From contig CAVWWD010000007.1 of assembly GCA_963758635.1 (NCBI GenBank), positions 32,001 to 96,000 of the forward strand: a DNA stretch of 64,000 nucleotides, written 5' to 3'. The notes under the pieces are model-generated. The model made no database searches and was not told the DNA's origin. It was given only the letters and a program-made list of their open reading frames with translations. Of this stretch, positions 7,867 through 13,946 are shown one piece after another. The translations under genes were made by a program, and so were the position numbers. Source of the DNA: an uncultured Candidatus Rokubacteria bacterium (lineage in GTDB: Bacteria; Methylomirabilota; Methylomirabilia; Rokubacteriales; CSP1-6). Position 1 is the first letter of the stretch, and each line of letters begins with the position of its first letter.

Positions 7867-8611
7867 AGTACGCCTCGATGACCCGGGGATCGCGCCGGAT
7901 GGCCTCGGGCGGCCCCTCGGCGAGCTTCTGCCCATGGTCGAGCACCACGACCCGTCGCGAGATGTCCATGACAACGTCCATGTTGTGCTCGACGAGGAGC
8001 ACGGTCTTGCCCTGGCGATTGAGCGCGAGGATGTGCTCCTTCATCTGGTTGATCATCGTCGGGTTGATGGCGGCGGCCGGCTCGTCGAGCAGCAGCATCT
8101 CCGGGTCGGGCATGAGCGTGGCCGCGAACGAGAGAAGCTTCCGCTGCCCGTACGAGAGGCGGCCCGCCGGCGTGTCGGCCCGCGCGCCCAGGCCCACGAG
8201 GTCCAGCAGCGTCCGCGCGCGCGCCACGGCCTCGCGCTCCAGCCCGCGGACGCGGCGGGTGCGGACGAGCCGGGCGAGCAGGCTCTCCTCCTGGTGCTGC
8301 TGGACGAACACGAGCAGGTTTTCCAGCACGCTGAGCCGCGCGAAGACGCTCACGTGCTGGAACGTGCGGCCAAGGCCGAGGCGCGCCACGCGGTGGGGTG
8401 GCGCCCCGGTCAGGTCCTGGCCGCGGAAGAGGACCCGTCCGCCGTCGGCGGGAAGATAGCCGGTCACGCAGTTGAAGATCGTCGTCTTGCCCGAGCCGTT
8501 CGGACCGATCAGGCTGACCAGCTCGCCGGCCTCGATGGTCAGGTCCACCGCGTCCACGGCGGTGACTCCCTGGAAGCGCTTGACCAGCCCGCGCACCTCG
8601 AGGAGCGGCAT
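7856..8611 (-). CDS. Branched-chain amino acid ABC ATP-binding protein (LivG-like)
   Basis: GPNGSGKTT, LSYGQRK, LDEPAA, VEHNM, VIEAYFG. Confidence 0.9.
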   Translation of the reverse strand: MPLLEVRGLVKRFQGVTAVDAVDLTIEAGELVSLIGPNGSGKTTIFNCVTGYLPADGGRVLFRGQDLTGAPPHRVARLGLGRTFQHVSVFARLSVLENLLVFVQQHQEESLLARLVRTRRVRGLEREAVARARTLLDLVGLGARADTPAGRLSYGQRKLLSFAATLMPDPEMLLLDEPAAAINPTMINQMKEHILALNRQGKTVLLVEHNMDVVMDISRRVVVLDHGQKLAEGPPEAIRRDPRVIEAYFGR

Positions 8612-11256: not shown

Positions 11257-12128
11257 CAGATGCCGAGCCGCCGGCCGAACAGGCCCTGCGGGCGCCAGAG
11301 GAGGACCGCGATCATGATCAGGAACGCGAAGGCGTCCTTGTACGCGTAGGAGAGGTAGCTGCCGGCGAGCGCCTCGGTGAGGCCGATGAGGAAGCTGGCG
11401 GCGATCGCGCCGTTGACGTAGCCGAAGCCGCCCGCCACCACCGCGGCGAAGGCCTTCAGGGTGAGCGCGGTGCCCATGTCCGGGAAGATGTTGAAGAGCG
11501 GCGACACGAGGACGGCGGCGGCGGTGGCGAGCGCGGCGGAGACCGCGAAGGTGATCATGGCGATGCGCTGCACGTCGACGCCGACCACCGCGCAGGCCTC
11601 GCGGTTCTGCGACATCGCGCGCATGGCCCGGCCGGTGCGGGTGGTCCGGACGAAGCGCTGGAGGCCCCAGAAGATCGTGAGGCTCGCGGCCAGGACGAGG
11701 AGCCGCTGCCAGGCGAGGCGGAGGCCGCCCACGTCGAGCACGGCGGCGGAGAGCCGCGTCGGCACCTCCTTGGGCTGGGTGCCGAACACGATGATGGCGA
11801 GGTTGGTGAGCACGATCGAGGTCGCGAGCGTGGCGATGAGCTGCACGTGCCACGAGCGCGGCAGCACGACGCGGATGACGGTGCGCTGGTAGGCGATGCC
11901 GAACACCACCATGACGGCGGGGGCGAGCAGGCCGGCCACCGCGTAGGGGAGCGAGAGCTCGCGGTACGCGAACCAGAAGGCGTACGCGCCCAGCATGAAG
12001 AACTCGCCGTGGGCGAAGTTGATGAGCCGCGCGACGCCGAGCATGAGCGCGAGCCCCGCCGCCACCATCGCGTACATCGACCCCAGCGTGAGGCCGTGCA
12101 CCACCTGCTCGACGACGTCCAGGATCAT
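11256..12128 (-). CDS. Branched-chain amino acid ABC permease (LivH-like)
   Basis: GLTLGSMYAMVAAGL, INFAHGEFFMLGAY, GRAMRAMSQN, RPQGLFG. Confidence 0.92.
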   Translation of the reverse strand: MILDVVEQVVHGLTLGSMYAMVAAGLALMLGVARLINFAHGEFFMLGAYAFWFAYRELSLPYAVAGLLAPAVMVVFGIAYQRTVIRVVLPRSWHVQLIATLATSIVLTNLAIIVFGTQPKEVPTRLSAAVLDVGGLRLAWQRLLVLAASLTIFWGLQRFVRTTRTGRAMRAMSQNREACAVVGVDVQRIAMITFAVSAALATAAAVLVSPLFNIFPDMGTALTLKAFAAVVAGGFGYVNGAIAASFLIGLTEALAGSYLSYAYKDAFAFLIMIAVLLWRPQGLFGRRLGI

Positions 12129-12279
12129 CGGCGCGCGTGTCCGCTCTTCGACGCTCGCGGAGCCGCTGGTCGCCGGGCCCCGGGGCACACGTCGCCCCGG
12201 CACCCCCGTGGCGCGGTGAGGGCCGACAGAGAGCGGGCGGGGCGAGCGCGCCCCCCCATCCCCTGTACGCTTGAGCAGG

Positions 12280-12445
12280 TCATCGGCCATCTCGGCGAGA
12301 GTGCCACCCCCATCCGGTGCCGGCACGCATGCGAGCACCACTCAGGGACTGCGCCTCGCCCGGGATGTCGTGGTGGACGTCCCGTGGGGAGTCGCGCTTT
12401 GAGCGCCAGTACAGGGGTGATCGCATACCACGACACGGCCGAGGG
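12280..12445 (+). ncRNA. IS110 bridge RNA (target-binding and donor-binding loops); ends approximate
   Basis: Two hairpins with internal loops whose strands match the target flanks and the IS ends (detailed in findings). Confidence 0.8.
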
Positions 12446-12470
12446 CGAATTGCGGGGAGAAAGGGGTGCG

Positions 12471-13706
12471 ATGCCGGACTACGAACTGTATGTCGGTGTG
12501 GATTGGGCGACGCAAACGCATCAGGTCTGCCACGTGAGCCCGACCGGACAGCGGCGGCGGGAGTACGCGGTGGCCCACTCCGGGGCTGGCCTGGCCGCGT
12601 TGGTGACGGCGTTGACCGAGGAGCACGTGGACCCGGCGCACATCGCGGTCGCCTTGGAGGTGCCCCGTGGCGCGATCGTGGACGCGCTGCTTGCCGCTGG
12701 GTGTCACGTCTACGCGGTCAATCCCAAACAGCTCGATCGCTTCCGCGATCGCCATAGCGTGGCCGGGGCCAAGGACGATCGGCGTGACGCCTTCGTCCTG
12801 GGCGATGCCGTGCGCACGGATCGGGCCGCCTTCCGGCGGGTCACGGCGGAGGATCCGCGGCTGCTCCAGTTGCGCGAGGTGTCGCGGCTGCACGCCGAGT
12901 TGGTCCAGGAGCGGCTGCAGCTCGGCAATCGCCTGCGTGAGCAGGTGCACCGCTACTTCCCCGCGCTGCTGGGCCTGTGCCCGGCGGCCGATGAACCGTG
13001 GCTGTGGAGCCTGCTCGAGACCTGGCCGACGCCCGCGCACGCGGCGCGCGCGGGCCGGCCGGCCCTGCGCCGGCTGCTGGCCCGCCATCGGATCCGCCGG
13101 CTGACGGCGGACGCCGTGCACAGCGCGTTGCAGGCGCCGCCGCTGCCGGTGGCGCCGGGGACCGTGGAAGCGGTCGTCGAGCATCTGGCGCTGCTGCTGC
13201 CCCGCCTCCGCTTGGCCCAGGCCCAGGAGCGGCACTGCGAGCAGCGGCTGGAGCAGTTGCTGGACGCGCTGACGGTGGCCGACCCCGCGCGGCCCGAGCG
13301 GCCAGAGCATCGTGACGTGACTATCCTCCGCTCCTTGCCCGGGGTCGGGAGAGTCGTCGCCGCCACGATGCTCGCCGAGGCGTGGACGCCGTTGGCGACC
13401 CGAGATTACCAGACGTTGCGCGCTCAGGCCGGCGTCGCGCCGGTCACCCGTCAGAGTGGGAAGAGTCGCGTGGTCACGCTCCGCCGAGGCTGCAACCACC
13501 GGCTGCGCAATGCGATGTTCCACTGGGCGCGCAACAGCATCCGGGACGATCCGCGCGCCCGGGCGCACTACGATCGCCTGCGTCTGCGTCATGGCCATGC
13601 GCGGGCGCTCCGCGGCGTCGCGGATCGTTTGCTCGGGGTGCTCATCGCCATGCTCACGAGCGGCACGCTCTACGATGCGACGCGCCGACAGAAAATTGCC
13701 GCTTGA
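12471..13706 (+). CDS. IS110 family transposase/recombinase
   Basis: RuvC-like DEDD motifs GVDWA, ALEVP, KDDRRDA; SLPGVG; TRQSGK with the conserved Ser. Confidence 0.95.
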   Translation: MPDYELYVGVDWATQTHQVCHVSPTGQRRREYAVAHSGAGLAALVTALTEEHVDPAHIAVALEVPRGAIVDALLAAGCHVYAVNPKQLDRFRDRHSVAGAKDDRRDAFVLGDAVRTDRAAFRRVTAEDPRLLQLREVSRLHAELVQERLQLGNRLREQVHRYFPALLGLCPAADEPWLWSLLETWPTPAHAARAGRPALRRLLARHRIRRLTADAVHSALQAPPLPVAPGTVEAVVEHLALLLPRLRLAQAQERHCEQRLEQLLDALTVADPARPERPEHRDVTILRSLPGVGRVVAATMLAEAWTPLATRDYQTLRAQAGVAPVTRQSGKSRVVTLRRGCNHRLRNAMFHWARNSIRDDPRARAHYDRLRLRHGHARALRGVADRLLGVLIAMLTSGTLYDATRRQKIAA

Positions 13707-13946
13707 CAACACGTGGGGAGTCCCAGAGGGGGCTGCGCGGGGGCTGTCGACCCGTTGCGGTGCGCTCGCCCCGCCCGTCGCGCGAGGCGGTGCGCCACAA
13801 GGGGGTACCGGGACGACGTGTGCCCCGGGGCCCGGCGGCGCGTGGTCCGTGCGGGTCCGGAGCCAGTGCTGTCCGCGTTGCTGCGGGCCCCGTTCGTGTC
13901 GCTGCCTGGTCCGTATGGTCGGTGGTTGTCACCCCGTCTCGACGCG

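Follow-up and report, generated by a model that had tools for sequence, protein, structure and literature searches.

Bridge RNA of a rokubacterial IS110-family element with left guides that appear to end just before the core

Bridge RNAs have been known since 2024 and are reported to be predicted in most IS110 elements. For the IS110-family insertion sequence described here, found in a 64,000-nucleotide stretch of DNA from an uncultured Candidatus Rokubacteria bacterium (the window, in whose coordinates all positions are given), the question is where the two core bases lie and how the four guides of its RNA are placed relative to them. Because both junctions of the element share TCCC, leaving seven C to divide between target and donor, the core is not placeable from the window alone. 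We placed it by comparison with relatives and with empty target sites.

The element and its predicted bridge RNA

The insertion sequence spans positions 12262–13721 on the plus strand (1460 bp, including one CC core), and blastn and tblastn searches found no other copy of it in its own genome (6.2 Mb, 87 per cent complete). Its recombinase gene (12471–13706, plus strand) encodes a DEDD enzyme of 411 amino acids, as identified by profile matches, an alignment of relatives, and the predicted fold. The product contains both PF01548 and PF02371 (E-values of 8e-33 for the DEDD part and 3.8e-17 for PF02371) and scores above the cut-off of the NCBIfam IS110 model NF033542. The catalytic residues D11, E63, D103, and D106 and the C-terminal S329 are invariant in all 27 aligned relatives. 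The predicted fold has a mean pLDDT of 87.8, and its best structural matches are IS621 (TM-score of 0.76, by target) and ISCro4. The non-coding ends measure 207 bp on the left and 15 bp on the right, and the RNA lies in the left (upstream) end. The element therefore lacks the trait of the IS1111 group, an RNA in a long right end, and has those of the IS110 group, a two-loop RNA with guides that match target and donor. A CC core is present at both junctions (12262 and 13722), without target duplication, as judged from empty sites. As read from its sequence, the element is an intact IS110-family member of the long-recombinase branch, with a bridge RNA. Its closest named relative, 70 per cent identical, comes from a Candidatus Rokubacteria assembly. 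It is flanked by genes for a periplasmic binding protein and a permease, on the other strand. Between positions 8600 and 11300, amidohydrolase-like and ABC-transporter genes seem split across frames, probably by long-read indels.

The predicted bridge RNA extends from 12278 to 12445 on the plus strand, its ends following from the promoter and the closing stem, and covariation together with guide matches delimits its two loops on the same strand. In the target-binding loop (12290–12364), a scaffold motif (12300–12305) is followed by the left guide (12307–12315), the inner stem (12317–12320/12335–12338), the right guide (12341–12345, matching at four of five positions, with one mismatch), a core-pairing GG (12346–12347), and a handshake dinucleotide (12348–12349). 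The donor-binding loop (12366–12435) has the scaffold motif at 12377–12382, the left guide at 12384–12392, the inner stem at 12394–12397/12403–12406, the right guide at 12409–12413, the core-pairing GG at 12414–12415, and the handshake at 12416–12417. A conserved unpaired A precedes each guide, and a C occupies the position of the syn-G, which in IS621 lies five bases from the flipped A. All motifs listed in a preliminary description of this DNA (the outer and inner stems and the segments 12307–12315, 12341–12348, 12383–12393, 12409–12417, 12260–12268, and 13712–13722) are present at these positions.

When the four guide words were sought in 3000 random 202-nt stretches of the genome, the observed match levels were reached 0, 744, 1, and 23 times, and all four words were jointly matched in none of the 3000. 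The earlier description was right that this is an intact-looking IS110 element and that the four guides of its bridge RNA fit the element's own target and donor. The two-hairpin fold, for which a covariation check across relatives had been proposed, is supported. Specifically, among 72 distinct relatives 96.5 per cent of cells are paired and 21 of 29 pairs show two-sided changes; the covariation score is 0.383, compared with 0.187 in shuffles and at most 0.104 when slid, the helices scored being those found by RNAalifold on the same alignment, which favours the slide control. In single-sequence folding, stability was no better than in shuffles (z = −0.82), and a search of Rfam gave no match at E-values up to 1. 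Both handshakes are fully matched in the window, at positions 6–7 of the partner DNA. Among the relatives, 70 of 73 have a donor-loop handshake that fits target position 7, and 50 of 73 one that fits position 6, the latter versus 29.9 (maximum 42) after permutation. Handshake pairing with positions 6–7 of the partner DNA has been reported to favour insertion (PMC11208158; PMC13626964).

A −35 hexamer of perfect consensus (13703–13708, plus strand), which overlaps the stop codon, would face a −10 hexamer (12266–12271, plus strand) across the circle junction, with a spacer of 17 bp in the register adopted here and 19 bp in that of the preliminary description; the distance of the −35 was fixed by the locus parser, and the promoter is known from sequence only. 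A promoter and terminator scan of the linear locus found none, and a sigma-70-type promoter would probably form only across the circle junction. No circle joint was found among the contigs of four sequencing runs, which yielded fragments only. A single contig, of low depth, links 12263 to half of a related repeat, too weak a signal to count.

Placement of the core and the junctions

We compared 113 loci of at least 45 per cent identity, taken from genome and metagenome contigs and from related genomes. Bridge RNAs were parsed in 87 of them; 26 loci, truncated or divergent, did not parse and were dropped, and merging of seven duplicates left 80 distinct rows, which are not independent of each other. 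The right target guide was read as five nucleotides plus two core-pairing bases at a fixed distance from the scaffold motif. In 68 relatives it matches the right flank at a mean of 4.69 of five positions (52 matches are perfect). Shifts of one or two bases lower this to 1.54–2.31, and permutation to 2.07 (maximum 2.5). The right donor guide lies equally far from its own motif and is complementary, in 76 of 78 relatives, to the five bases that the left junction has behind the core; four variant pairs of guide and junction are matched. In the window, these five bases, the right donor, open the left end of the element (12264–12268, plus strand).

The core reads CC in 79 of the 80 distinct rows; the remaining one has CT, at either junction, with AG in its two right guides. 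A 34 per cent identical element, present in four copies in another genome (G060), likewise has a CT core and AG in both right guides. Some rows have no more than two C at their left junction. From the right guides, the CT row, and the two-C rows, it follows that the core is CC and that the left end begins directly after it. By this sequence comparison, the core is the CC at 12262–12263 and, as its donor copy at the right junction, at 13722–13723 (plus strand, from the junctions of relatives), two bases from the register of the preliminary description. The left donor comprises the nine nucleotides 13713–13721 (plus strand) and is identical to the left donor guide.

Two relatives have unusual junctions. 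The left junction of L150, read by eye, has TC as its target-side and CC as its donor-side core, as would be expected of a cut on the 3′ side of the core, with no need for the two cores to agree. In L033 (positions 408–440, genome G011), the right end of a 77 per cent identical recombinase fragment continues through the core into donor-like sequence. This locus looked like a circle junction, but there is no bridge RNA downstream, and we did not count it as proof; it may be a remnant, or may have arisen by insertion into a donor-like site.

The target is a dispersed palindromic repeat, whose left part (12152–12263, plus strand) ends with the target copy of the core and whose right part (13724–13846, plus strand) begins with the right target (13724–13728). 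The left target (12253–12261, plus strand) has nine nucleotides, is identical to the left target guide, and stops immediately before the core. Five intact, empty copies of the repeat lie elsewhere in the same genome, with 5, 5, 5, 6, and 4 C after a central A-T or A-A. Rebuilt in the corrected register, the empty site of the element has five C, like three of these paralogues; the other two have four or six. Empty sites in the genomes of relatives give the same register in eight of ten matches in G061 and eight of eight distinct loci in G062; no empty repeat with the pattern used was found in G001 and G011. For a third target, 94 of 111 listed rows, counted by hand with two unpublished genomes omitted and a further 62 rows outside the listing, agree with the corrected register, and none of those listed has the length needed by IS621 geometry. 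The empty sites also rule out target-site duplication as a cause of the left-guide shift described below.

The insertion point falls in the apical loop of the folded repeat, which may be likened to the help that a target stem-loop gives ISPpu10. The empty allele of one element's target recurs beyond an N gap (L006/L030), in agreement with the corrected register. Seven relatives (L001, L027, L080, L083, L084, L086, and L139) entered the same repeat family six bases upstream of the window's site, with left guides read one or two bases farther back than in IS621, an instance of natural retargeting along one repeat. Elements of the L096 type target a second short dispersed repeat, with up to about 50 copies per genome, in many genomes of the phylum (e.g. 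G171, G176, G165, and G222).

The preliminary description had read the junctions as a TC (or shifted CC) core in an element ending at 12259–13720, with a three-C target, a four-C donor, long donor guides, and the IS621 overlap of left target guide and core. Its appeal is that the left target guide includes the core and that the window alone yields matches of 9/9 and 7/8. We give this register hardly any credence: none of the five empty paralogues has three C, relatives with two C or a CT core force the right donor to begin right behind the core, the promoter spacer would be 19 bp, the right donor guide would mismatch the core T, and the predicted 14-bp word has no site in the genome within one mismatch. 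Empty sites, relatives, and promoter spacing place the core two bases away and the ends at 12262–13721, and neither the three-C target nor the four-C donor is borne out. As a core, TC is lost; CC, the second choice, survives in its letters, yet at a different place. The 11-nt left donor match comes down to a guide of nine nucleotides with two further bases from the linker; only 13 of 67 relatives have, just 5′ of this guide, a base equal to that of the donor. As to the supposed nine-nucleotide right donor guide, its last two G are handshake bases pairing with the target side, and the guide is five nucleotides plus the core pair. Nor are the donor guides unusually long in the sense described. 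The shift of the left guides was missed because IS621 geometry had been assumed.

Distance of the left guides from the core

In IS621 (Durrant et al. 2024, PMC11208160; Hiraizumi et al. 2024, PMC11208158; Hiraizumi et al. 2026, PMC13626964), the core is described as included in each pairing. Its left target guide, nine nucleotides long, begins seven bases past a flipped A, stops one base short of the inner stem, and takes in both core bases, and its left donor guide extends as far as the first of these (PMC11208158); the scaffold spacing can also be seen in the oligonucleotides of PMC11208160. We define the offset as the number of bases by which a left guide is read farther back from the core than in IS621, measured from scaffold positions aligned to IS621 by analogy and not by structure. 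Right guides never shift, and left guides do. In the window, the left target guide matches at 9/9 positions at offset 2 versus 5/9 at offset 0. Within its own genome, the 16-bp offset-2 word occurs within one mismatch at one site only, an empty repeat copy; the 15-bp offset-1 word has one unrelated site, and the 14-bp offset-0 word, that of IS621 geometry, has none.

Among relatives, the left donor guide stands at offset 2 in 58 of 66 cases and never uniquely at 0 or 1. Seven further donor loops scored as offset 3, six of them through one-base anchoring slips of the parser with the usual 9-mer, and one gave no clear offset. The last two letters of this guide are GT or AT, never those of a core, and all nine of its positions covary. 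The left target guide matches its own target at 7.82 positions at best, compared with 5.28 after permutation; its best offset in 73 rows is 0 in 20, 1 in 22, 2 in 18, 3 in 1, and unclear in 12, per-class figures that are partly circular, since offsets were picked by best match. With IS621 scaffold spacing, both left guides therefore appear to end just before the core rather than to cover it. In 57 of 66 relatives a C or T follows the left donor guide; such a base could pair with the first position of the core, as in IS621, and the donor loop may thus retain a one-base overlap. The two outermost guide positions are matched in 9 and 13 of 18 rows at offset 2, versus 14 and 19 of 20 at offset 0, so that the full 16 bp may not be read.

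On a quick tree, offset 2 is found in 14 of the 21 rows of the window's clade (SH-aLRT of 95), compared with 4 of 51 rows outside it. The offset changes at least 26 times on this tree (L020 omitted), though the changes are clustered; strict linkage of offset to phylogeny was not found. In 15 of 18 offset-2 rows a single linker base follows the handshake, against two such bases in 38 of the 42 rows with offsets of 0 or 1, an association confounded with descent. Farther away, the 34 per cent identical CT-core element of G060 has donor offset 2 and target offset 1, with a G linker that is unable to pair, and two 31 per cent identical loci have, by eye, the same donor layout. A multi-copy IS110 element of 38 per cent identity in G060 (L171–L175) has a longer and differently built left end.

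An alternative is that the element is an old inactive copy whose target loop was programmed for a different site, the shifted match being a coincidence in a C-rich repeat or a homopolymer error of assembly. Such a reading would account for the single copy and the mismatch in the right target guide, and the frameshifted appearance of nearby genes suggests long-read errors. It is nevertheless very unlikely, given the open 411-amino-acid frame with all catalytic residues, the two fitting handshakes, and the offset of 2 common to most of the clade. Moreover, an independent contig from another run covers 12105–12442 with four substitutions, no gap at the left junction, and the same run length, which rules out a homopolymer or assembly error in the C run.

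A different concern is that most targets end in C runs, nearly all with at least three C, which blurs single cases. The offset might then be only apparent: IS621 geometry would hold, the DNA slipping or bulging in the C run or the guide extending into the linker, and both strands would be exchanged via a Holliday junction. Two loci with identical enzyme and guides (L133 and L135) indeed have best left-guide offsets of 1 and 2 at two different sites, near relatives enter the same base with offsets 1 and 2, and a linker able to pair with the following base is present in 12 of 22 offset-1 and 8 of 18 offset-2 cases. In the remaining 10 of 18 offset-2 cases, the window included, the linker is unable to pair; the CT-core element with its non-pairing G linker has the same offsets, and the left donor guide keeps its GT or AT ending and its covariation at all nine positions. 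In addition, the left guides of L096, L099, L100, L011, and L018 have no CC ending, with TC (as in the L096 type) or GC endings among them. Slippage in the C run is excluded as the cause of the offset by these non-CC guides and by the CT-core elements, and we regard an apparent offset, taken as a whole, as improbable.

Some expectations of the preliminary description bear on these relatives. It had looked to the flanks of other copies for agreement with the target guides; there are no other copies in the genome, and it is the guides of relatives that track their junctions. Its inference that the system is reprogrammable finds support only in natural retargeting among relatives.

Proposed mechanism and comparison with known systems

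We think it probable, overall, that a long-recombinase IS110 element with a CC-core register uses its right guides to set the cut and has left guides that read two bases back. Joining of the ends in a circle would create the sigma-70-type promoter across the junction, from which, as in IS621, the two-loop bridge RNA would be transcribed. The recombinase would bind each loop, and the right guides (five nucleotides plus GG) would pair with the top strand across the CC core. By analogy with IS621 chemistry, this pairing would fix the cut 3′ of the core through a serine intermediate, and the handshake dinucleotides would pair with the partner DNA after top-strand exchange. The element would have landed in this way at the tip of a dispersed palindromic repeat without duplication, in the register given by the comparison of sites. 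The left guides, nine nucleotides long and at the IS621 scaffold position, would pair with the nine bases before the core and would not overlap with the right guides; the sequence matches amount to about 16 bp, versus up to 14, and would reflect pairing in the complex.

Right guides that are fixed and left guides that shift suggest that the top strand sets the joint and that the left guides mainly open and identify the DNA. We lean slightly towards the view that the top strand alone sets the crossover, with left guides as anchors of drifting register and the bottom strand completed by host replication or repair. The fixed right guides fit a joining set by the top strand, and top-strand-dominant insertion has been described for CazIS110-1 (10.1101/2025.10.25.684509) and single-strand copy-out for IS621 (10.64898/2026.08.31.748434). 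Cryo-EM of IS621, in which bottom-strand cleavage is reported in the complex (PMC11208158), is at odds with simple top-strand-only joining. A staggered cut around the core in offset-2 loops is a possible alternative. More tentatively, and with somewhat less than even confidence, we extend the preferred reading to a large long-recombinase branch in which left guides would be uncoupled from the crossover: the donor loop would read the nine bases before the core, the target loop would read zero to two bases back, tuned by the RNA loop, and only the right guides would set the cut.

The element shares with IS621, as described in the sources above, DEDD and serine domains, a bridge RNA in a long left end, loops ordered as left guide, stem, and right guide, and the spacing to the guide from the A that is flipped in IS621 (a nine-nucleotide left guide that starts at A+7, and a right guide that ends in two core bases followed by the handshake), as well as a junction promoter and insertion into a palindromic repeat without duplication. 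Unlike IS621, to which it is about 21 per cent identical, it has a recombinase of 411 rather than 326 amino acids, a CC rather than a CT core, a C in place of the syn-G, and an unbulged right donor guide of five nucleotides. Neither of its left guides reaches the core: the one for the target is followed by a G linker, and the one for the donor by a linker that at most pairs with the first core base.

Other described systems resemble it in part. CazIS110-1 (Sun et al., 10.1101/2025.10.25.684509) is also an IS110 element with a left-end bridge RNA; its catalytic serine 312 lies near S329 here, a position from which its enzyme, too, is probably of the long type. Its top-strand-dominant insertion serves as the model adopted above, and the text consulted states no guide-to-core register for it. 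The Pseudomonas putida elements ISPpu10 and ISPpu9 (10.64898/2026.03.19.712850; PMC12288879) likewise insert in repetitive palindromic sequences; the same sources report that a target stem-loop helps ISPpu10 and that left guides tolerate more than right guides. These two elements differ in their CT and AG cores, their guides are mapped by IS621 logic, and the text consulted mentions no shifted register. The ISEc21 seekRNA system (Siddiquee et al. 2024, PMC11187229) resembles the element in belonging to the IS110 group, in its upstream non-coding RNA, junction promoter, and natural retargeting, and in a bottom-strand match that precedes the top-strand match; it differs in its 358-amino-acid enzyme and belongs to another subgroup. 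Enzymes of 395–455 amino acids are placed by the same authors in a subgroup that includes IS110 itself, which the element here fits by length only.

The system itself is thus of a known kind, and its apparent novelty lies in the shifted, variable register of its left guides. A non-overlapping or variable left-guide register was not found stated in searches of openly accessible papers, in passages of the text of PMC11208160 and its preprint, PMC11187229, PMC12288879, PMC13604230, 10.1101/2025.05.14.653916, and 10.64898/2026.08.14.744561, or in readable supplements. Extended Data Fig. 10c of PMC11208160, in which six diverse elements have their guides aligned with the cores, may already contain the shift. 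The donor motif of this family, as such, was not found in the readable supplements of that paper.

Bridge recombinases are under development for genome editing. Papers of 2024–2026 disagree on whether these enzymes exchange both strands or pass on the top strand alone. Right guides that stay fixed while left guides drift by up to two bases make the strand question directly testable. If there were no shift, this locus would simply add another instance of a system already known. With it, a guide designed for such an enzyme on IS621 rules would miss the register, and the longer read-out of 16 bp could mean higher specificity. If true, the branch-wide reading proposed here would amount to natural, family-wide evidence for top-strand-only joining; it would also allow recognition sites as long as 16 bp and supply a new rule by which to program these recombinases.
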